From the IMG/VR virus record IMGVR_UViG_3300032070_000613, positions 32,001 to 96,000 of that record: a DNA stretch of 64,000 nt; one strand, given 5' to 3'. The stretch comes from a virus. The translations under genes were made by a program, and so were the position numbers. Positions 5,174-42,763 of this stretch are shown piece by piece (position 1 is the first letter of the stretch; the number at the start of each line of letters is the position of its first letter). The notes beneath the pieces were generated by a model. It was not told the DNA's origin, ran no database searches, and saw only the letters and a list, made by a program, of their open reading frames with translations.

Positions 5174-5222
5174 ATTTTTGAATAAATACAAGATACATCT
5201 TTACTCGAAAAGGAGTCCCCGT

Positions 5223-6113
5223 ATGCCTTTTAATCTCAAAGAAGCTGCAGAAAATTTATTGAATGTGGCGAATGCTCTGGAGAAAGAGGCATTCGATAGG
5301 ACATTTTTTGTTTGCCAAAGCTGCAATCACACTGCATCTCTCACCTCGATCAATGCCAAAAGGAATAAAGTCGCAAAAGAGATGGGTGTGAAGAATGTGA
5401 ATACCGTGACCGTGAATGAGAAAGTATCCTGCCCGGCATGTGATGGTGTCCTGGAATATGTCCCCACAGATGAGAGCAGTAAATACTATGTGGAGGCTGC
5501 TGAGGGTGCTCCTCTTGAGATAGCGCCTCCATCTGATGTATCGCCGGATATGCCTAAAGATGAGCTACTCCCGCCTCCTGAGAAGAAGAAACCTCCGAAA
5601 GAGGAGGCTCCAGAGGATACCGGTAGTATTTTTGCACCTGTCGATGAGAGAGAAAAGGATGAGGAGCTCAATTTAGATTTTCCTGAAGGGGAAGGTAAAT
5701 CTGAAGATGAGCCCCCTGAGATGCCGCCTGAGGGTGATAAACCTCCTGAGATGCCGCCTGAGGGTGAGAAGTCCCCTGAGATGTCTCCTGAAGGGGATAA
5801 ACCTCCTGAGATGTCGCCTGAGGGCGAGAAGTCCCCTGAGATGCCTCCTGAAGGGGAGAAGCCTCCTGAGATGCCTCCTGAAGGGGATAAACCTCCTGAG
5901 ATGTCACCTGAGGGTGAGAAGCCTCCTGAGGAAGCTGAAATGCCTCCTGTGGTTGAGGAAGAAGTACCGCTTCTAGAGCCTGAGAAGAAGCCGAAAAAGA
6001 AGAAGGAAAAAGTAGAGTTCCCTAAAGAGGACGTGCCGAAATTTGAGAAAATGCCAAAAGATGCTAGTGATGATGCAGCCTATCAGGCATCCCTTAAAAA
6101 GTACATGTTCTGA
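5223..6113 (+). CDS. Zn-finger protein with Pro/Glu-rich repeats; possible internal head or scaffold-like protein
   Basis: AAAGGAG RBS favours ATG 5223 over the ORF-track start at 5178; CQSC...CPAC; 10-aa repeats. Confidence 0.6.
   Translation: MPFNLKEAAENLLNVANALEKEAFDRTFFVCQSCNHTASLTSINAKRNKVAKEMGVKNVNTVTVNEKVSCPACDGVLEYVPTDESSKYYVEAAEGAPLEIAPPSDVSPDMPKDELLPPPEKKKPPKEEAPEDTGSIFAPVDEREKDEELNLDFPEGEGKSEDEPPEMPPEGDKPPEMPPEGEKSPEMSPEGDKPPEMSPEGEKSPEMPPEGEKPPEMPPEGDKPPEMSPEGEKPPEEAEMPPVVEEEVPLLEPEKKPKKKKEKVEFPKEDVPKFEKMPKDASDDAAYQASLKKYMF
5712..5930 (+). repeat. 30-bp coding tandem repeat, 7 full units plus a partial unit
   Basis: Unit (C/T)CNCCTGAGATG(C/T)CNCCTGARGGNGA(T/G)AAR encodes (P/S)PEM(P/S)PEG(D/E)K. 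Confidence 0.95.
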
Positions 6114-6148
6114 ATGTTTCGATATGCATATTCAAATAAGATCGAAAT

Positions 6149-6838
6149 ATGATTTTAGTGATAGGAAACACTCCTCAAAAGGTAGAACTTAAAGATCTTG
6201 GCGATTATATATACTATAAACAACAAAAAATTTTTACAGATTCGCAGTATAATCGATCGCAGGATCTTCAGAGAGAAATCCAAAAAGGGTCTTTAACGAT
6301 ACTCAAAAGAGCCGACGATAAGAGCGGCTCTTTTGATATACCCTCTGTAGGCTATTCCTCGGTATCTGCGGACAAATCTCCTGTGACGGATTTTTCTAAG
6401 TTGGATACTCTTCTGGAGCGTATTAATAGTCTGGAAGAGTCGATCAATGCCAAATCGACCCTTTCTCCTGAGGCTCATAATGATGTCATCAAATCTCTGA
6501 TTGAGAAGGTGACTCGTTTGGAGAGTGAGCTCATCGCCGGTAATAATGGTCAGAGTTTGTCTATATTGCATGATGCTATTAAAAAATTGGAGGATAAAGT
6601 AGGTCGCGGGGCTGATGAGACTATACTCAAGAGACTGGAGGATATCTTAAATAGGGCTCCTGCTGCGGCATCGTCTGTTGAGCGTAAAGAGGAGACGAGA
6701 CCTGAGGATGTGTATGTGCCCACGGTCACTGTGGAGGATGCCAATACGCATATTAAATTGGATATACGGACTATTGGTGGTGGGGATGATGTGAATGACT
6801 CTTTGAAAAAACTGAAAGAATTAAAATCTAAATCTTAA
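6149..6838 (+). CDS. Coiled-coil protein, putative partner of the actin-like ATPase
   Basis: Several heptad segments (LLERINSLEE, LIEKVTRLES, ILKRLEDIL); C-terminal amphipathic DVNDSLKKLKEL; 15 bp upstream of the actin gene. Confidence 0.6.
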   Translation: MILVIGNTPQKVELKDLGDYIYYKQQKIFTDSQYNRSQDLQREIQKGSLTILKRADDKSGSFDIPSVGYSSVSADKSPVTDFSKLDTLLERINSLEESINAKSTLSPEAHNDVIKSLIEKVTRLESELIAGNNGQSLSILHDAIKKLEDKVGRGADETILKRLEDILNRAPAAASSVERKEETRPEDVYVPTVTVEDANTHIKLDIRTIGGGDDVNDSLKKLKELKSKS

Positions 6839-6853
6839 ATACAGGAGGTTTAC

Positions 6854-7858
6854 ATGTGCGCAGTCGGACTTGACATCGGGACATGTTTTTTAGTTTCTGC
6901 TACTCAGGATGAGAGTGGTCAGACACAAATTAAATCGATTAGGGACGCATTTATTGACATTGAGGCAGATGCCTCCACCATTAATATGCTGAAGATGTCC
7001 AACGTGTCTTATGTACATGACGGTAATAATATAGTAGTGGTAGGAGAATCGGCGCTGAATCTAGCGAACTTGCTAAAAAGGGAATCACGCAGGCCAATGA
7101 GCCAGGGGGTAATATCTCCGGGAGAGCGCGATGCTGAGCGTATGTTGGCTATTTTACTTAAGAATATTCTTCCGGGCCCTAAAGTGGAGAATGAGAATGT
7201 ATTTTTTTCGGTACCTGCTAAATCTGTAGATCGTGAGATGGATGTCATATACCATACAGCTATAATAAAAAAAATTATTGAAAATTTTAATTATAAAGTC
7301 ACACCTCTTAACGAAGCGGCTGCATTGGTATATTCTAATTGTAGTTCTGAAGGATTTACAGCTATGGCCAGTAGTTTTGGAGCTGGATCTGTAAATACTG
7401 CCATAGTATATAAAACCATGGTAGGTATGGCTTTTTCATTGGCGAGATCTGGGGATCATATTGATGCCTCCGCGGCTCGTGCTGTAGGGTCTACAGCTAC
7501 CAGGATGATGGCTATTAAAGAGCTGGGTGTGAATCTCCTGGATCCTACTGAGGGAGATCCTAAGCAGATACGAGAGCGTGAAGCTATTATAATGTACTAT
7601 CGCAATTTGATACGGTATGTCATTGAGAATATAGCTAAAGAATTCAAGAAAGATAATAGTAAAATAGAGCTCCCGGATTCCCTGCCGTGGATATTGTCTG
7701 GGGGATCCACAAAACCTAAGAATTTTCTTGAATTTTTCAAATCTGAGTTTGAAAAAGAAAAGAGTTCATTTCCACTTAAGGTGTCCGATATTCGTATGGC
7801 TGGCGATGTTTTAAATGATGTCGCTAAGGGATTGCTCATAGCGGCTATGAATGAATAG
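6854..7858 (+). CDS. Actin-fold ATPase (MreB/FtsA/ParM superfamily)
   Basis: AGGAGG RBS; phosphate-1 GLDIGT, connect-1 NEAAA, phosphate-2 SFGAGSVN, adenosine ILSGGST, connect-2 AKGLL. Confidence 0.85.
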   Translation: MCAVGLDIGTCFLVSATQDESGQTQIKSIRDAFIDIEADASTINMLKMSNVSYVHDGNNIVVVGESALNLANLLKRESRRPMSQGVISPGERDAERMLAILLKNILPGPKVENENVFFSVPAKSVDREMDVIYHTAIIKKIIENFNYKVTPLNEAAALVYSNCSSEGFTAMASSFGAGSVNTAIVYKTMVGMAFSLARSGDHIDASAARAVGSTATRMMAIKELGVNLLDPTEGDPKQIREREAIIMYYRNLIRYVIENIAKEFKKDNSKIELPDSLPWILSGGSTKPKNFLEFFKSEFEKEKSSFPLKVSDIRMAGDVLNDVAKGLLIAAMNE

Positions 7859-7921
7859 GCATTTAATGATTGAAATTTTTGTGTGATAGAACCTATATTT
7901 TTACAGTTCTTTTTGTTGTGT

Positions 7922-7937
7922 AGTATTCTTTTAATTT
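7922..7937 (+). promoter_or_regulatory. Variant promoter motif upstream of the candidate ncRNA
   Basis: AGTATTCTTTTAATTT matches CTNTTAAT; core starts 23 nt before the first helix. Confidence 0.45.
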
Positions 7938-7950
7938 ATTTATTATAGAT

Positions 7951-8088
7951 GTACAGGTCTGGAAGCCTGTGCTCTATCCTCTCATACAGAGTAATAGATA
8001 GCTAACATAACCGAGAGTCAGAGATAGCCTTTTCTGTAGGGGTGTCTTCTCTGTAGGGGTCTTCCAGCCCCGCCTCGGTTTATTTTTT
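7951..8088 (+). ncRNA. Candidate structured ncRNA with a loop-loop (kissing) interaction
   Basis: Helices 7951-7958/7965-7972, 7974-7978/7997-8001, 8009-8015/8074-8080, 8019-8024/8048-8053, 8056-8060/8067-8071; loops CTGGAAG and CTTCCAG are complementary; followed by a T-tract. Confidence 0.55.
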
Positions 8089-8098
8089 AGGAGTGTAG

Positions 8099-8114
8099 GA
8101 TAACCTATTAATTT
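8099..8114 (+). promoter_or_regulatory. Variant promoter motif
   Basis: GATAACCTATTAATTT upstream of the 8153 gene. Confidence 0.5.
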
Positions 8115-8152
8115 TTTCTATATATTATAAATTTTAATTTTAAAGAAGCCCT

Positions 8153-9583
8153 ATGCAAAATGACCTACTCAAAAATGTAAAGTATCGTTTACTTGACGAA
8201 TTGCGATATGCTGTCGAGAAGCATCAAGTTTACGTTGACAAAGTGAGAATTTATCATAAATTTCCAATGCAAGAAAGACCCAGTATTGGAATTATTTTAC
8301 GCAACGCCTCTTCCAGCAGAATAAAACTCTCCGCGGACGACAACGCCGGTACTCTCAAAAGTCACCTGACTCTGGCTAAAGCTGAGAATAAACCCTCGGG
8401 GTGTCTGGACTGGGTATGGGAAGATGCCGTGCATATGACCGAGCTCCAGCAGGATGAGGACCTCTCTAGTCAGATCCAGGGTACATCCACCTACGGTCAA
8501 AATCGTTTTTTCTATACCTCTAAAAAACCTATCATATCAGGAAAAAATAATACGGTCGTCGCTGATAATTTCAGGCAGGTCTCTCTCACCCTAAACGGTG
8601 AAAATGTGCTCGCTGAATTCATAGACGGTAAAAGAGGGATAGTAGCTCTCCCTCAGGCACCCGTGGTAGGAGACTCTCTAAAAATCAGCTATTACTATAA
8701 TAATCTCACTCCTCCTGGCAGGTATTATTTAGAGATCATATCCGCTACTCAGTTCGTCATAGATCCTTTCTATCAGGTACGAGACGAAGAGCTAATAATA
8801 GATACTACAGGATTAGAGACTACAGTCTCGCTGGCTCATGGTAATCTATATGGAGATTTTGATGTCCTCTATACCATGAAGACTAAATTCAGCAATAAAA
8901 TCTATCTGGAAAAAAACATAGACTACACTATTACGACAGCCGGAGTAATAACTTTTCTGAATCCACTCCCTGTAGGCACTACTCTCTATGCCAATTATCG
9001 GTGGGGTGGCGCTACCATGGGACCGTTTGATATCCCTGAGCCATTCCATTATAATAATACTGCGCTGCCGGGGGTCATACTGGCATTCAGTAATCAGCTG
9101 GACGTAGGGACTCGGGTGGTGGTGCTGGTATATCCTCAGAGGGAGCCCTCAGCCATTATTTATAGCGGGCATTATAAGATGGTTTTTGAGATAGACGTGT
9201 TTGCTAAAGACCCCATACAGCTCCCGGATCTCACAGACCATCTCATATCAGAGATATGGTCTAATCGCAGGCTGCCTCTGATCAGTGAGGGTTTGACCAT
9301 AGAGGAGATGGATCCTACGGGTGAGTCCGAGGAGGTCTACGATAACAATACAGGGGATTTGTATTATAAAAACAGTATCACTTTACAGATGATGACAGAG
9401 TGGAAAAAGTTTGTACCGCTCAGTATAGAGCTCATGGATTATGATACCAAACTCTATCAATATATCACGACAAAAAAATATGTGATCACGAATCAGAATA
9501 AAGTGCTGGAGATGAAACTAGTGCCGTGGACGGTGCCTTTTGAGGTGAAATATCCGAAAGTAGGATATGCCCGTCTGATTTGA
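8153..9583 (+). CDS. Putative tail terminator / tail completion protein with inserted beta-domains
   Basis: ERPSIGIILR N-terminus and FEIDVFAKD...LTDHL C-terminal pattern; immediately upstream of the sheath; insert resembles the sheath inserts. Confidence 0.5.
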   Translation: MQNDLLKNVKYRLLDELRYAVEKHQVYVDKVRIYHKFPMQERPSIGIILRNASSSRIKLSADDNAGTLKSHLTLAKAENKPSGCLDWVWEDAVHMTELQQDEDLSSQIQGTSTYGQNRFFYTSKKPIISGKNNTVVADNFRQVSLTLNGENVLAEFIDGKRGIVALPQAPVVGDSLKISYYYNNLTPPGRYYLEIISATQFVIDPFYQVRDEELIIDTTGLETTVSLAHGNLYGDFDVLYTMKTKFSNKIYLEKNIDYTITTAGVITFLNPLPVGTTLYANYRWGGATMGPFDIPEPFHYNNTALPGVILAFSNQLDVGTRVVVLVYPQREPSAIIYSGHYKMVFEIDVFAKDPIQLPDLTDHLISEIWSNRRLPLISEGLTIEEMDPTGESEEVYDNNTGDLYYKNSITLQMMTEWKKFVPLSIELMDYDTKLYQYITTKKYVITNQNKVLEMKLVPWTVPFEVKYPKVGYARLI

Positions 9584-9586
9584 TCG

Positions 9587-9606
9587 AATAATCTCTTAAT
9601 ATAGAT
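9587..9606 (+). promoter_or_regulatory. Recurrent promoter motif
   Basis: AATAATCTCTTAATATAGAT; 19 of 20 identical to 41989-42008. Confidence 0.7.
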
Positions 9607-9653
9607 ACCATTTTAAATTCATATTCACATCTCATATAAAAAGGAGTGTCGGT

Positions 9654-10124
9654 ATGCCGATTTATACGTACAAGTGTGAGGCGTGCAATTTTATTTTCGA
9701 AGAGTTGGTGTCGTACGATAAAAAAGATGATGTAAATTGTAATTTATGTAAAGGTAAAGCTCATAGGGGAGCGGCGGAGACATTCGGGATAAATACGACT
9801 CTGAATCCAAAAACAGATACGATTTATAGTCCAAAAGAAATAGATAAAGTAGTGGGGGCTGAGTCGGAGAAAAAGTGGGCTGGATATGATGAGCGCTGGC
9901 GGCAGCGATATGAGGCCCGGCAGCAAAAGAGATGGAAGGGTATGACTCCTACTCCCGTGAATATACCAAAGGATCCTGACGGAAAATATACGCCTATCAT
10001 GCATTTAGGGAATAGTAAAGACAGGGAGTTGAGGAGAGAATATTCTACGGCGTTGCAGGAGCATAGAGCGGAGAGAAAAAAGAGAGGTGAGGATCAGTTT
10101 GATGCGCCTGGGGCGATTCTATAG
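9654..10124 (+). CDS. FmdB-family zinc-ribbon protein
   Basis: MPIYTYKCEAC..FEELV...CNLC; AAGGAG RBS. Confidence 0.8.
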   Translation: MPIYTYKCEACNFIFEELVSYDKKDDVNCNLCKGKAHRGAAETFGINTTLNPKTDTIYSPKEIDKVVGAESEKKWAGYDERWRQRYEARQQKRWKGMTPTPVNIPKDPDGKYTPIMHLGNSKDRELRREYSTALQEHRAERKKRGEDQFDAPGAIL

Positions 10125-10134
10125 CTTAGTTACT

Positions 10135-10150
10135 AATACTCTCTTAATAT
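10135..10150 (+). promoter_or_regulatory. Recurrent promoter motif upstream of the sheath
   Basis: AATACTCTCTTAATAT, identical to 41989-42004. Confidence 0.7.
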
Positions 10151-10251
10151 TCAAATCCAAATAAGATACTCATAGCAGATATAGCCATATATACTATAAA
10201 ATAAAATCAACTGAAAAAATTAGTAATTAAGATATAAAAAGGAGCTCACTC

Positions 10252-13212
10252 ATGGCTATAGGACCTCTTGAAAGTTTTGTATTCCCGGGCGTATTAGTCC
10301 GTACTATCAATGAGGCCGCGGGAGCCTCCACTGCAGGTGACATACGTTTCCCAGCTATTATCGGAGTGTCCGCTGAAGAAGTCCGTGTAGCTGATTTTGA
10401 ATTGGTGAGAGGATCCTCTGCTATAGCGGACAACATTATCCTCGATGAGCTGGTGACAGGGATTTCTATATCTACACCGTCTGGATATACTCCGGGTTGG
10501 ATAGGTGGGGCGCAGGGTAGTGTGAAATCGTTCCGCGTAGCCAATGTCCCCATCGTCACTGGTGATGGTTCTGGAAAAGTTGGTACATCTCCCTCCAATG
10601 TAATAGTCACCGTCAATAATGAAAATGTAGCCGTCAATTCAATAAACGGGCTCACCGGTCAGGTAGATCTGGTCGTGATACCTAAAGACACCGATGTTGT
10701 TCGTGTCAATTATTATTTCAAGAGACGTGATACGTATATCGAGAACGAGAATCTCATTCTCCAGGCTGACGGATCCAATAAGATTTTCAAAGTCCATAGC
10801 GCTCGTATAGTGAAGGGTGATAACAGTGGTACGTCGGCTACGGATGCCGATATCAACGGTACGGTAAAAATTCTTTATGATCCTACTCCGACCACTAATC
10901 CTGGTGATGAATTTGAGAGGACTGTAAAAGTCATCGATGTTAAAGTGGATGGTGTATCTGCCACTATTACCGCTTTGGACGGTTCTACGGGTAGAGTCAC
11001 TCTGCAGACTGCTCCTACAGGAGGTGGCAGTCATACTCTTACGGTGACGTATTTCACGAATATCTGGCAGGACACATATGATATTCTACCCGCTCCTGTT
11101 GTGAATAGAGTCATCGAGGTGGGACTCAGCCAGGACACATCGGATTTCTCCGTGGGTAATGATTGTGTCCTGTCTGGAGATAATAAGCTGCACTGGGGTA
11201 ATTCTTATCAGAAGACTCAGGGTGTCTACACTGTAGGGTCTACGGCTGTAATAAACAACATAGTGCCTTCTATCACAGATACTAAAGTTTATGGTAGAGT
11301 GGCTGCTCCTGCAGTGCCTAGTGGTGTGGATGCGGATAATATTCCTCTGAACACTGATGGCAACAAAGTTTTCATTCTACCCACAGCTCCTGTTGATTCG
11401 AGTGGTACTGGAGTGGCTACAGAAGATACCACATTGATTACGGCTTATGTAGGTTCGACATGGGCGTTAGCCTATGCTGGTGGTGCAGTGACAGTCATGT
11501 CTATCAGTGGCAGTCAGATTACACTAGCGGTATCTCCTTCGAATGCCCTCTCGGAAAAAGTATATGTCACCTATTATGAGAACAACATAGTAGATGATGA
11601 CTGGCTGTTTACAGTGCGTGTACCTGGTATTGCTACAGTGGGTAAGTATACGGTTTCTTCTTTGCTCCATGGTAATGCATTATCTGTGACGCAGGCTGCG
11701 GGTGGGACAGCAGTTTTTGCTTATGTAGGTGGTTATATTAATTGTGAAGTAAATCCTCTTATAGCATCTGTAGAACGTGTAAGATGTACATTTGATGGCT
11801 CTAACAGTTTTACGGTTACTTCTATGGTTGGAACGACCCTCACTCCCTGGGTGCCTAACGGTCGTACCGGTTCGGTCATTACCTATAATCAGAACATAGG
11901 TAAACTCGGTAAAACGTATATCGATCCTACGACTGGGTTCAGAGTGACGTTCGATGCTTCAACAGTGCCCGCAAATAGTACTTATGTGGAATTTGATGTA
12001 GGTGATCCTACCGTATCTAATGCTACTCAGAGACTCTATATCACTGCCAATACCCCTATCGTAAAAGTGATCCCGGGTATGTATATCACGGTATCGACGA
12101 CCTCTGGTAGCTATGCTGATGATACAGTAGTGCTCAGCACCTATAATAAGAGCGGTAATGAGCCCAATGTAGGTGATATGTACTATGTCACATTTGATAA
12201 GGCTAAGACTGATTACACTACGAAATTCCTGACGAATATGCGTGATGTAATCAAATATTTCGGGCCGATCGACATCAACAATAAAGTGACCATCGCCGCT
12301 AATCTGTGTTTTCTGAATGGTGCCCGTGCAGTGGCTATCAAGCAAATTTTAAGAGTGACGGGTGGTACGGACGCGAGTGTGCAGGATTACATTGATGGTA
12401 TCGATGCTTTTGGTGAGCCGATGCCGAACGGTCTGCGTCCGTCTATGGTACAACCGCTATCGACAAATTCGGAGGTACAGAGTTATCTGAAGACCTCTAA
12501 TGCTATACAATCCAGTATCCGGTATAGGAACGAGCGTACTAGCGTTATAGGTTTTGCGGTCGGGACTACTTCTGATGAGGTTATTCAGAAATGTAAGAAT
12601 CTCGCTACCGAGAAAGTCACGGCAGTGTATCCTGATGGTGCTATCATTGGTATCGTCGACACCTACGGTAATGAAGTCGAATATATCGTCGATGGATCGA
12701 TGATTGCTGCCGCGGTGGCTGGGCGTGATATTTCTCCTGTCTCAGATATTGCTACTCCTCTGACCAATGCCACGATCGTAGGTTTCAAGAGACTCTACAG
12801 GAGATTGGATAATGTTACTGCGGCGTTGGTGGCGAATGCCGGGTGTACGGTACTTGAGGAGCAGACTCCGGTTATCAGGATTTTGATGTATTTGACTACA
12901 GATATGTCCACATCGTTGACGAGGGATCCTCGTATTGTTGAGGTGAAGCATTCGATTCAGCAGGGTTTGCGTACTGCTTTACAGCGGTATATCGGCTCCA
13001 AGAACCTGCCGAAGATGCAGCCTCAGATCAGGGATACGGTGGGGTCTTATTTCAAGCAGCTCAAGAAGAATGAGATCATTGTGGATTTCACGGGTATCAA
13101 TGTTAAGCAGAACGAGAGTGATCCGAGTACGGTGGATGTGGAGGCATATTACAGTCCAGTGTTCCCGTTGAACTGGATTGTTGTGACGTTGAACCTGAGA
13201 CAGAGTCTGTAA
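10252..13212 (+). CDS. Contractile tail sheath protein
   Basis: N-terminal FPGVLVRT, PAIIG; C-terminal IAAAVAG, LANAGCTVLE-like segment, YIGSK, VDVEAYYSPVFPLNWIVVTL. Confidence 0.9.
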   Translation: MAIGPLESFVFPGVLVRTINEAAGASTAGDIRFPAIIGVSAEEVRVADFELVRGSSAIADNIILDELVTGISISTPSGYTPGWIGGAQGSVKSFRVANVPIVTGDGSGKVGTSPSNVIVTVNNENVAVNSINGLTGQVDLVVIPKDTDVVRVNYYFKRRDTYIENENLILQADGSNKIFKVHSARIVKGDNSGTSATDADINGTVKILYDPTPTTNPGDEFERTVKVIDVKVDGVSATITALDGSTGRVTLQTAPTGGGSHTLTVTYFTNIWQDTYDILPAPVVNRVIEVGLSQDTSDFSVGNDCVLSGDNKLHWGNSYQKTQGVYTVGSTAVINNIVPSITDTKVYGRVAAPAVPSGVDADNIPLNTDGNKVFILPTAPVDSSGTGVATEDTTLITAYVGSTWALAYAGGAVTVMSISGSQITLAVSPSNALSEKVYVTYYENNIVDDDWLFTVRVPGIATVGKYTVSSLLHGNALSVTQAAGGTAVFAYVGGYINCEVNPLIASVERVRCTFDGSNSFTVTSMVGTTLTPWVPNGRTGSVITYNQNIGKLGKTYIDPTTGFRVTFDASTVPANSTYVEFDVGDPTVSNATQRLYITANTPIVKVIPGMYITVSTTSGSYADDTVVLSTYNKSGNEPNVGDMYYVTFDKAKTDYTTKFLTNMRDVIKYFGPIDINNKVTIAANLCFLNGARAVAIKQILRVTGGTDASVQDYIDGIDAFGEPMPNGLRPSMVQPLSTNSEVQSYLKTSNAIQSSIRYRNERTSVIGFAVGTTSDEVIQKCKNLATEKVTAVYPDGAIIGIVDTYGNEVEYIVDGSMIAAAVAGRDISPVSDIATPLTNATIVGFKRLYRRLDNVTAALVANAGCTVLEEQTPVIRILMYLTTDMSTSLTRDPRIVEVKHSIQQGLRTALQRYIGSKNLPKMQPQIRDTVGSYFKQLKKNEIIVDFTGINVKQNESDPSTVDVEAYYSPVFPLNWIVVTLNLRQSL

Positions 13213-15058: not shown

Positions 15059-15165
15059 ATATTTATATAATATATCATATTTTACATTTCATTTTTATAT
15101 AACATAAAATAATTATCTCATATTACTTCATAAATCCCCTGTTTGTATATCCCCTTGTAGGAAAT

Positions 15166-15181
15166 ATTTATCTGTTAATAT
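15166..15181 (+). promoter_or_regulatory. Variant promoter motif
   Basis: ATTTATCTGTTAATAT upstream of the 15222 gene. Confidence 0.5.
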
Positions 15182-16847: not shown

Positions 16848-19800
16848 ATGCCTATTGATGATTTAAATAAAGAACAAAAAATTCTAGAGGCTAAAAAAGC
16901 TGGTAACGCTCTGGATAAAGCAGCTATTGCAAATAATAAAAGTCTTGCCAGTATGTTGGATAAAATGGTAGAGAGTCATTTGCGAGGAAATAGGGCTCGT
17001 GAAGAATCTAGAAGAATTTCTAAACTCGTGAATGAAACTATAAAAAAAAGAAAAAAGATAGAAGAAGAATATACTAATAAATTAGAAAAATCTAAAAAGG
17101 AATATCAGGCTGTTTTAATTGAGTCCAAAAAACTTATTAAATATCGTAAAACGGAAGGTAAAGATTTTAAAGATATTACAAAAAAACGAACAAAACAATA
17201 TAGAATAGGAAAAAAAGAACAAGAAAATATTAAAAAAGCGTATGAATCACAATTAGAAGTTGTTAATAAAGAAATTACTGCTCGGCAAAATCTTTTTGAT
17301 TTGCATGAAAAATATTATAAAGATAATATACTTTTTATTAAGAATGAAAAAGCATATGACGACGCTTTAGAGGAAAGACTTGTAGTTGAAGAAAAAATTC
17401 TTGAAGCACGTAAAGCGGCAGAAAACATATCTGAAGAAGATTATAAAACGCTAAAAAAAGAGATAAGAGGTGAGGAAAATGTAGCTAAAATAAGAGAAGA
17501 TCTTGAAGAGAAAACTTCTGAATCTGAAGCTGCAAGAGAAAGATATCGTAAAAAATTAAAAGGATATCTTCCGTCTAAAGGAGCTCCCCGAGAGAAAAAA
17601 GAAAAGGCTCTCGAATTTGTTAAACAAGAAAGATTCGATCTAGCTAAAGAGATGGGTGGAAAATTAAAGACTCTTCGTTCAGCCAGAGGTATAGGGGGAC
17701 ATCTAGAGGCTGCTAAAGGCATAGGAGAGACTGTTAATAAATTTAAAGATTTGTCAAAAATTTTAGGAGGTGTAGGAGCAGAAGCCAAAGGTGCTGCCGG
17801 TATGTTTGGTGTACTTCGCACAGGAATGGAGATGTTGGGTAAAATAGGTTGGATAGGATTGATTATATCCGCTGTTGCCGCCGTAATTAAAGCAGTAAAT
17901 GAATTGAATAATTTTATAAAAAAATTCAATAAATCTTTTATTAAAATGTATGGCCCTACGATAGCCATGAAAAATGTTACAGCGAGTATGAAAACTTTTA
18001 CTGATGCTGTTTTTGATATGAATAGAAATTTAAAATATGGTTTAAAATCTGAAGATATAACGGGTCTTTTTGAAGCTATGTCAGCAGGAGGTCTTTCTTT
18101 ACAAGGAGTAGGTAAAAGAGTACGAGGAGGTTATAACGAAGTTATATTGGAAGCCACCAAACTTAGTAGAGATTTCGGAGTGGATCTTAGTGAGATGGGT
18201 AGTATGATAGCTGATCAGATGGTTAATTTGAAAGCGTCTTTAGATGAAGTGCGCGATTCAATGGAAGCTATGGCTTATGATGCTACCATTGTGGGAATTA
18301 GCTCACAAAAATTCTATGAAGCAGTCACTGCTGCTACAGATGCTTTAGGTTATTATGGAAATTATTTGAAAAGCACGTCATTCCTTCTTAAGACATTTGC
18401 TGAGAGAGGGGCAATGCCTTTTAAAGATGCCGCTAAAGAAGCTCAAGATATAATGGGCATTTTTAAAGGTATGGATATTAGAAAAAAATTGGGATTTATT
18501 CAAATAGTAGGTGATCCTAAAGTTAAAGAGGACATGGCTAGACGTGCTGAACTTATAAAAGAAGAAACTCAACTTTTAGAGGACAAAATAGCTGCTACAC
18601 AAAATATTATAGATAAAACTAAAGATGCCGCTAAAAAAGAAGAATATATACGGCAAAAAGGAGCTTTGGAAGATCAGAAAAGAGAAAAAGAAAGAATTCG
18701 TCGTCGATTACAAATGGCTGTTGAAGGAGATTCAGCAGCTAGAGCTGCTTCTTTAGGTTATATGGCAGATCGTACAGTAGATTATCTTATTACGGCTTTA
18801 AAAAGAGCTGGAGGTGGAAAATTAGATTTATTTAATCTTGATGACGTAATGGCTAAAGCAACTATATTGAGACAAACTGCGGATGTTCCTGAAGAAGCTC
18901 TCAATAAACTTGTAGATACTAGTGCTGCTATATTAGCTGATGCTGAAGAATCCGCGGAATTTATAACAAGTAGTTTAAAAGATATAGGTCCTGAAAGCAG
19001 AGCAGCACTAAAAGATGTAATGGCAGGATATGTGAGGGATATAGAATTAGGTAAATCTATAAATGAAGATGACATAAGAGCTAGTTTATTGGCTTTTCAA
19101 AAGTCTGGTGGTAAAATAGGCATGTCTATAGATAGATTTATTGATGAATTTAAAAAGAATGCTTTTGTTCTTGATGCGTCTATATCTGGTACGGGTATGG
19201 ATATGAAGGTCCTTTCTGAAAAATGGCTTACAGCTAATGCTAGTATTATAGGCGGATCGAAAGAACAGGATAAACGTCTTCAAGATATAACTAAAAATAC
19301 GAAAACTTTTGAAGAATTTATTGGTATAGGTAAAGAAAATATGGAATATATGGCAGCTATGGCTGCAGGAGGTGATCTTCAGAATCTTGCCAATAATGCG
19401 ATGATAGCCACGGCAAATACTGCTGGGGGCATTTTAGGATTATTACAGAAATGGATTGCAGGTAAAAAAGGCGAATATAAAACAGATGAAGAATTTAAAA
19501 AAGGTCATGAATGGGGTGATTTAATATCTGCTTCTAAAAGGCAAGTTTTATTGACTAGATTATTATATAAAGCCCAACAAAAATACGATAAAACTCAGAA
19601 TGCTTCTGATAAAGAGCAGGTCGACCTTATACAAGCTGAAATAGCTAAATTAGAAGATTTAAAAGGAACATTATCAGAAGTACGGCCTGATTTAGCGGCT
19701 GGCGCTGTTATGGAAGGTACTAAACAAGCTCAAGATTTATTAGATCAAAGGGAGAGATCCAAAAAAACATTAGCATATTGGGAAGGAAGAGTAAAAGATG

Positions 19801-41988: not shown

Positions 41989-42008
41989 AATACTCTCTTA
42001 ATATAGAT
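41989..42008 (+). promoter_or_regulatory. Recurrent promoter motif; downstream gene probably near-leaderless
   Basis: AATACTCTCTTAATATAGAT; ATG at 42017 with no SD. Confidence 0.7.
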
Positions 42009-42016
42009 GGCTTTAT

Positions 42017-42763
42017 ATGTCATACGATCCTAAATTACAGAATAAATGTGATCATAAAATAAACTGGGAGAGCTATCCGCTCGAGTCTGATCGGATCACA
42101 GTCAATTTAAAGTATCCGGTGTCCTCAGTCTATGGCCTGTCTCTGAGGATAAATAATGCTGTCATAGCGCCAAACAGATATACAGTAATATCATATAAAC
42201 AGGCACAGTCTCTAAATCCAGCGTCTAGTGTCAGAATGAGCTATAAAGTACCGGATTGGGAACCTCTGATAGAAGTAAACTATACTACCTACGCGAACAA
42301 CTGCCCTAAGTGTCTCGCAGTCAAATATGTCGATGACGTCATCTATACTCCCTCCGGGGATTTTCAAATGGCCCAGAAAGAATATCTTTTAATGCAGACG
42401 GTCGAGAAAGCTATCATCACTAAAATAGCCTCTAATCCTTTCCACGACTGGTATGGGACTGGGCTGCAGTCGCTGATAGGTACGAAGATAACAGACCTGA
42501 GTTTTATGAAAAATAAAATCATAGAGCAGGTGTCCGCCTCGATAGAAAAAATTAAAAATGTACAGAAACAACTCGTGGCCTCGAATAGGAAAGTGGATCC
42601 AGGGGAGCTTTTCGGGCAGCTTTTGAATGTCGATGTACAGCAGATGGATGATCCGACTATCATAATGGTGACCGTGGTGTTTACGTCACAAAGCAATAAA
42701 CAGATGGAATTCTCTCAACTGATAGACCTATCCTCTGTGAGAGAAAGGGTCGCATTCGCATGA
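42017..42763 (+). CDS. Baseplate wedge / sheath initiator (gp25-like)
   Basis: NPFHDWYGTGLQSLIG, DDPTIIMVTVVF; CDH...CPKC motif; precedes baseplate J. Confidence 0.7.
   Translation: MSYDPKLQNKCDHKINWESYPLESDRITVNLKYPVSSVYGLSLRINNAVIAPNRYTVISYKQAQSLNPASSVRMSYKVPDWEPLIEVNYTTYANNCPKCLAVKYVDDVIYTPSGDFQMAQKEYLLMQTVEKAIITKIASNPFHDWYGTGLQSLIGTKITDLSFMKNKIIEQVSASIEKIKNVQKQLVASNRKVDPGELFGQLLNVDVQQMDDPTIIMVTVVFTSQSNKQMEFSQLIDLSSVRERVAFA

Follow-up and report, generated by a model that had tools for sequence, protein, structure and literature searches.

A putative strain-specific terminator/promoter cassette carrying a structured segment downstream of the actin-like gene of an uncultivated megaphage

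What is the role of a folded, promoter-bearing island that lies between two genes of a sheath-tailed megaphage, at a place where relatives have only a terminator and a promoter? The initial annotation had read the island as a stand-alone late RNA with kissing loops, possibly serving virion assembly, packaging or the neighbouring actin system. The window analysed here, a stretch of 64,000 nt, corresponds to bases 32001-96000 of a 141-kb IMG/VR virus record (record G000), the completeness of which is estimated by CheckV at 30%, giving a phage of ~470 kb; its tail-sheath gene lies at 10252-13212. Coding sequence makes up ~95% of the genome, in which gaps have a median length of 31.5 nt, and the gap between the actin-like gene and the gene for a conserved 476-aa protein (7859-8152, 294 nt) is the second longest ORF-free gap of the 141-kb record. 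The 476-aa protein gave no match to Pfam or PDB, and its gene is followed by a Zn-ribbon gene and then by the tail sheath gene. The features of the locus are collected in Table 1.

Table 1. Features of the gap between the actin-like gene and the 476-aa gene, in window coordinates.
Feature	Coordinates	Strand	Details
Actin-like gene, Volactin family	6854..7858	+	Pfam PF25216, E 2.1e-58; last gene of the upstream operon
Window-specific patch	7855..8095	+	241 nt; in place of the 64-nt spacer and hairpin terminator of the closest relatives
Possible decayed ancestral actin terminator	7888..7918	+	AGAACCTATATTTTTACAGTTC + TTTTTGTTG; positional likeness to the L001/L007 terminators
P1, extra late-promoter motif copy	7921..7935, core 7928-7935	+	TAGTATTCTTTTAAT; core CTTTTAAT; 23 nt before hairpin 1
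ATG ORF, 18 codons	7949..8005	+	MYRSGSLCSILSYRVIDS; no Shine-Dalgarno sequence; ATG 13 nt after the motif
Hairpin 1	7951..7972	+	8 bp, GUACAGGU/GCCUGUGC, loop CUGGAA; -10.5 kcal/mol, z = -3.4, pair probability 0.98
Hairpin 2	7973..7999	+	UCUAU-CUCU / AGAG-AUAGA; weaker; inner helix probability 0.52
Y-shaped 3' domain	8009..8080	+	-30 kcal/mol, z = -2.8; helix probabilities 0.84-0.97
Closing helix	8009-8015 / 8074-8080	+	AACCGAG / CUCGGUU; 7 bp, 4 GC pairs, probability 0.91
Arm	8019-8024 / 8048-8053	+	CAGAGA / UCUCUG; probability 0.84
Tandem duplication	8029..8060	+	CTTTTCTGTAGGGGT / CTTCTCTGTAGGGGT; 14/15 identical; repeat family D2
Hairpin 3	8056-8060 / 8067-8071	+	GGGGU / GCCCC, loop CUUCCA; probability 0.97
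U-tract	8081..8088	+	UAUUUUUU; directly 3' of the closing helix; likely transcript 3' end
P2, orthologous promoter of the 476-aa gene	8098..8112, core 8105-8112	+	GATAACCTATTAAT; core CTATTAAT; 10.8 bits
Conserved 476-aa protein, family unknown	8153..9583	+	169 homologues; first 150 nt are the L012-type allele

The folded segment, termed X, spans 7951-8088 (138 nt) and forms the GC-richer core of the window-specific stretch. The folded island, its hairpins 1-3, the three-way junction and the U-tract, all described previously, were each recovered in place. Hairpin 1, the loop of which lies outside the junction domain, is followed by a hairpin 2 whose outer UCUAU arm has an alternative partner, AUAGA, at 7945-7949; the long form of hairpin 2 belongs to the minimum free energy structure if the RNA starts at 7951. 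The Y-stem is a branched structure of 72 nt in which the closing helix encloses two arms (58 nt). Complementarity between the first and last loops was confirmed, the 6-nt loops CUGGAA and CUUCCA being complementary over 5 bp, or over 7 bp with their closing pairs. G-U pairs account for 8 of the 49 that are predicted, consistent with a structure at the RNA level on the + strand. An alternative pairing joins 7956-7965 with 8061-8070 (9/10), a long-range inverted repeat designated I7.

The segment 7951-8083 folds at -47.3 kcal/mol (z = -2.8), a stability equalled by 2 of 300 dinucleotide shuffles, and a separate fold run on the 151 nt of 7945-8095 returned z values of -2.08 (+ strand) and -1.40 (- strand). 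However, 4.7% of 149 natural 133-nt windows from the same genome also reach z <= -2.8, so that its stability is in the top 5% rather than exceptional. Strict hairpin loops that are complementary over 5 bp or more are found in 1.3% of 600 shuffles and in 1.0% of 403 natural windows, and none of the 1003 controls has a complementarity of at least 7 bp when closing pairs are included. The structure of X is real and somewhat unusual, although not overwhelming given the search space.

The promoter motif was modelled with a position weight matrix (PWM) made from 11 intergenic CTnTTAAT copies upstream of genes, with both copies of the actin-476-aa gap left out, and has a consensus of about TAATAnTCTnTTAATA. 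The motif that had been noticed 23 nt upstream of X, P1, proved to be a genuine instance of the late-promoter motif, with a score of 17.6 bits and rank 16 among 282,128 positions; the + strand sites that outscore it are all intergenic promoter copies. A chance origin of P1 within 241 nt is very unlikely. The separate promoter copy of the next gene, P2, was likewise borne out and is conserved in relatives, its extended form ATAA[CT]CTATTAAT being common to L001, L006, L007, L008, L009 and L012. This shared form, together with the homology to L012 that begins at 8096, identifies P2 rather than P1 as the orthologous promoter, and P1, which outscores P2 (17.6 against 10.8 bits), as additional. There are 14 strong promoter copies, and junctions consisting of a hairpin, a T-run and CTnTTAAT recur in several gaps. 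As separate observations, a tandem motif pair is present at window positions 15117-15179, where a degenerate copy lies 55 nt ahead of a good one, and at G000 135158-135182, outside the window, two CTTTTAAT copies lie 17 nt apart, so that promoter duplication recurs in the genome.

Two of the phage genes start 14 and 16 nt past the motif without a Shine-Dalgarno sequence (window 41995-42019 and G000 97687-97713), which suggests leaderless or near-leaderless late mRNAs and would imply that transcription begins within about 14 nt of the motif. From this motif spacing we infer that the 5' end of a P1 RNA would lie at ~7941-7949, immediately before hairpin 1. The same spacing raises the idea of a leaderless micro-gene, in which an 18-aa peptide (7949-8005) would be expressed from P1, with the Y-stem as terminator, given that the ATG falls 13 nt after the motif. 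However, hairpin 1 starts at the third base of this ORF and at -10.5 kcal/mol would block ribosome loading at the 5' end, making translation unlikely; an ATG at such a spacing is also likely to arise by chance, and 18 aa are too short for a homologue search. Of all the readings considered, the micro-gene seems the least credible. The other small ORF in the patch, a 21-aa GTG ORF, lies upstream of P1.

The decisive comparison is with the same junction in relatives. A lack of structural conservation there had been named beforehand as the refuting test, and it is what was found, since the element is absent from every relative examined, both near-identical and more distant. Three allele types occur within the 90%-identity cluster to which the 476-aa protein belongs. 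L006 shows 96.1% identity to the window in nucleotide BLAST comparison as far as 7854 and 99.3% from 8303 onwards, and has a gap of 91 nt made up of a spacer, GGCCTGTAGTGATGCAGGCC with a T-run, CCTATTAAT and the ATG. The L012 type, represented by at least seven contigs from several samples, is 84.7% identical (BLAST) up to 7854 and 94.9% from 8096, and its 119-nt gap contains the hairpin as in L006. As homology ends at 7854 and resumes at 8096 with L012, or at 8303 with L006, the window-specific DNA is 7855-8095.

Among relatives at a greater distance, with proteins 54-75% identical, the gap measures 115-135 nt in L001, L002, L004, L007 and L009/L010 as well as in two contigs whose DNA was not read. 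Each relative gap with DNA read contains a simple hairpin of -14.5 to -27.2 kcal/mol with a T-run, followed by ATAA[CT]CTATTAAT, and a terminator follows the actin gene in every DNA-read relative where that gene directly adjoins the 476-aa gene. L008, at 73% identity, has a 225-nt gap without X. Besides an extra hairpin, TCCCCATGTACGTGGGGA, its positions 1-273 carry part of an actin 3' end for a second time (…gaactcaTAGtaagccc, as in L007), and thus record a rearrangement that arose independently at this junction. In L003, a GC-rich relative that also does not contain X, an extra 184-aa ORF (5277-5831) separates the actin gene from the 476-aa homologue.

The start of the 476-aa gene itself is mosaic. 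Its first 150 nt (8153-8302) are ~95% identical to the L012 type but 60-73% identical to L006, to which the first three 60-nt windows are identical at only 36-44 of 60 positions, whereas from there on the gene matches L006 at 99% identity. A single 90% protein cluster contains three N-terminal alleles. The three alleles, the rearrangements in L008 and L003 and the mosaic gene start together mark this terminator-promoter junction as a recombination hot spot. Moreover, because phages with 95-99% identical neighbouring genes do not have X, neither assembly nor packaging nor the actin system can require it, and the roles that had been suggested for it in these processes are not upheld.

The position of X ahead of the 476-aa gene might instead suggest a leader or attenuator, such that P1 transcripts partly pass the U-tract and X tunes expression of the gene, with the pairing between 7956-7965 and 8061-8070 able to compete with hairpins 1 and 3. 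The tandem arrangement of P1 and P2 upstream of one gene and the inverted repeat I7 are compatible with such a device. Against this, P2, which is the conserved promoter, is located 3' of X, relatives express the 476-aa gene without X, and the alternative pairing leaves the closing helix beside the U-tract undisturbed. An attenuator is hence considered highly improbable.

The reading that we favour, and hold to be moderately probable, is that X belongs to a young, strain-specific intergenic cassette, akin to a moron or to a PeSL, which sits at a recombination-prone terminator-promoter junction and is accessory at best. It is envisaged that, in one phage, the 241-nt patch replaced the simple hairpin terminator 3' of the actin gene and brought with it P1 and X, that is two 5' hairpins, the Y-shaped stem and the U-tract. 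Recombination or duplication at the terminator-promoter junction may have given rise to the cassette. The U-tract lies 16 nt before the P2 core, and the T-run of the L012 terminator lies 18 nt before its promoter. Since the Y-stem with its U-tract is the only such arrangement in the gap and occupies the position of the relatives' terminator, the 3' domain of X would be expected to terminate both the actin operon and transcripts from P1. It would then be the only terminator left between the actin operon and P2, stopping read-through from the former, and would also end P1-started transcripts to give a late RNA of ~135-145 nt with a protective 5' hairpin. Stable small RNAs are usually built in this way, with a 5' hairpin and a 3' terminator, and on these sequence features an accessory RNA of ~140 nt is probably made from P1. 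Of the stand-alone late RNA of the initial annotation, the anatomy of a transcription unit (P1, the helix and the U-tract) therefore remains, but not the conserved kissing-loop RNA.

Some features do not sit easily with a terminator cassette. The branched Y-stem is unusual, as the other terminators of the genome are simple hairpins, and a consensus terminator scan of 6000-11000 called none, the Y-stem included. A simple hairpin would also suffice for termination, which leaves the 5' hairpins and the loop complementarity (~1% by chance) unexplained. As for the ancestral terminator, the fold of 7885-7921 reaches no more than -1.8 kcal/mol and that of 7859-7950 a z of +1.4, such that no stable hairpin is left upstream of P1. 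In Smith-Waterman alignments with the intergenic regions of relatives, X and 7859-7950 gave nothing significant apart from two exceptions, namely a 13-mer in common with L004 (P = 0.011, uncorrected for 7 tests) and CTTTTTGTTG in common with L001 (P = 0.02). With alignment support this weak, both a decayed terminator at 7888-7918 and an origin of X from an old terminator are conjecture. A resemblance of 7936-7950 to the L006 leader was rejected (P = 0.5).

Searches for X elsewhere point to an orphan. Neither an Rfam covariance search of 7700-8300 at E <= 10 nor one of the whole window at gathering score yielded more than noise, in keeping with the initial annotation, which had not recognised a known family in X, and ARAGORN reported no tRNA or tmRNA. 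By BLAST and covariance model, X matched neither the phage's own 141 kb, where only chance-level words were seen, nor the full records of four relatives, one of them 98% complete at 467 kb. All other fetched loci gave nothing significant, either by BLAST or with the covariance model run with filters off, and GenBank phages gave only chance-level words by BLAST. Exact scans, which detect near-identical copies only, found no match to one 25-mer of the 3' domain in IMG/VR viral contigs, to two 22-mers (hairpin 1 and 3' domain) in JGI metagenome contigs or to one hairpin-1 22-mer in GTDB genomes. A donor of the patch was not found in the sequences searched. The single-sequence covariance model R1 produced weak matches of 7-11 bits (E 0.1-3) that are not significant, those in L006, L009 and L012 falling on the orthologous terminator hairpin. 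A 15/16 match of the start of X to the start region of a giant glycosyltransferase ORF (G000 19759) was set aside as chance, since it did not extend and its genome-wide E was 0.94.

The internal make-up of X also bears on its age. The inner and outer helices of the arm and hairpin 3 each take one of their strands from the tandem duplication, and further short internal duplications are present in X. A near-perfect tandem repeat that builds separate helices indicates that the structure is young rather than old and conserved. This orphan status, the short duplications and the hot-spot junction would also suit neutral debris, an illegitimate or promoter-mediated recombination by-product in which P1 is silent or irrelevant and the stem and T-run are accidental, as would a fold stability that lies within the top 5% of the background and not beyond it. 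It is nevertheless hard to reconcile debris with a P1 that is closer to the consensus than P2, with so compact a genome and with an upstream operon that needs a terminator and has lost its ancestral one. Debris is accordingly regarded as quite improbable.

A stronger form of the RNA proposal is that X encodes a functional stand-alone late sRNA of ~140 nt from P1, which closes or oligomerises through CUGGAAG/CUUCCAG kissing and acts as an accessory decoy, regulator or anti-defence factor. The strong match of P1 to the promoter motif, an architecture typical of stable sRNAs (5' hairpin, 3' helix and U-tract), the fold z of -2.8, the better fold of the + strand than of the - strand with its 8 G-U pairs, and a position in one of the few long gaps of a 95%-coding genome all speak for such an RNA, as does the rarity of the loop complementarity (1.0-1.3% for strict loops, 0/1003 with closing pairs). 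Yet X is single-copy in all data searched and absent from relatives with 95-99% identity, no covariation is possible with a single copy, the helices are made from the 14/15 tandem duplication, and ~5% of natural windows fold equally well. The loop complementarity may equally be explained by an inverted copy of a 7-mer, and an RNAduplex search for targets among 104 translation-initiation regions was uninformative, the neighbouring gene ranking 86/104. A functional sRNA of this kind is judged unlikely.

The cassette can be compared with several known systems. The phi29 packaging RNA (pRNA, RF00044), to which X had been likened, is of a similar size class and likewise has a three-way junction and two loops of complementary sequence, although one of those of X lies outside the junction domain. 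Unlike pRNA, however, X is not conserved even among near-identical relatives, has no RF00044 match at E <= 10, and bears its complementarity in fully complementary 6-nt hairpin loops rather than in the R/L loop arrangement of pRNA. The phages differ as well, a sheath-tailed megaphage of ~470 kb standing against a small, protein-primed podovirus with a gp10 connector and a gp16 ATPase. On every testable point of membership except loop complementarity, the pRNA analogy fails. A search of the literature on actin or small RNAs of huge phages found nothing relevant.

With respect to intrinsic terminators, X shares a GC-containing helix followed by UAUUUUUU at the position of the relatives' terminators, but its stem is Y-shaped and 72 nt long instead of a simple short-loop hairpin, and was missed by the consensus scan. 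There is also a likeness to 3'UTR-derived sRNAs, in that an sRNA started from a promoter inside the upstream operon's 3' region would have its terminator in common with that operon.

Morons, a concept due to Hendrix and Juhala, are units of promoter, gene and terminator that have been inserted between genes lying side by side in related phages. The cassette resembles them in being strain-specific extra DNA between genes that in relatives are directly adjacent, with only a terminator and a promoter between them. Its 7855-8095 stands against 64 nt in L012, and the directly adjoining relatives, L008 excepted, have gaps of 91-135 nt. It also has its own copy of the promoter motif (17.6 bits) and its own stem and U-tract, which would function as promoter and terminator. 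It differs from a moron in that the cargo is a structured non-coding segment of 138 nt, or at most an ORF of 18 codons, and not a protein gene, and in that expression would come from a late-type phage promoter and not from a prophage. If X were a recently acquired late sRNA with a closed kissing-loop form or oligomer, conferring an accessory advantage as a decoy, an anti-defence factor or a regulator of host or phage transcripts, it would amount to an RNA moron; we consider this decidedly unlikely. Should the RNA be expressed and functional, it would be a rare moron with an RNA cargo.

PeSLs are composite terminator/promoter cassettes that mediate indels between closely related T4-type phages (PMC2839356, PMC4122927). 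As in PeSLs, a putative terminator stem-loop is joined here to a repeated promoter motif, and the boundaries of indels among very close relatives, for which there are three alleles, lie at such a junction, as would be expected of an exchange point. PeSLs have sigma70-like early promoters and occur in hyperplastic regions, whereas the present cassette has TAATAnTCTnTTAAT before virion genes, and neither mini-circles nor repeated copies of X were seen. If the reading as a strain-specific cassette is right, the locus would offer a clean, if ordinary, illustration of the remodelling of intergenic terminator-promoter junctions in huge phages, one of three alleles having swapped a hairpin terminator for a promoter-bearing structured cassette. 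The PeSL and moron ideas would thereby be extended to a megaphage lineage that is uncultivated and has a late-promoter motif of its own.

Three further observations concern the record as a whole. Its longest gap, at G000 137224-138586 and outside the window, comprises 1363 nt without an ORF of at least 70 aa. A small ORF at G000 19620-19760, also outside the window (MERVNFHLTDGERKGLELL…), looks ribbon-helix-helix-like by eye and lies directly upstream of a glycosyltransferase ORF of 1781 aa. Finally, the 311-aa ORF at 5178-6113 contains tandem repeats with a period of ~30 nt at 5706-5930, and its BLAST matches to L006 recur at 30-nt offsets.
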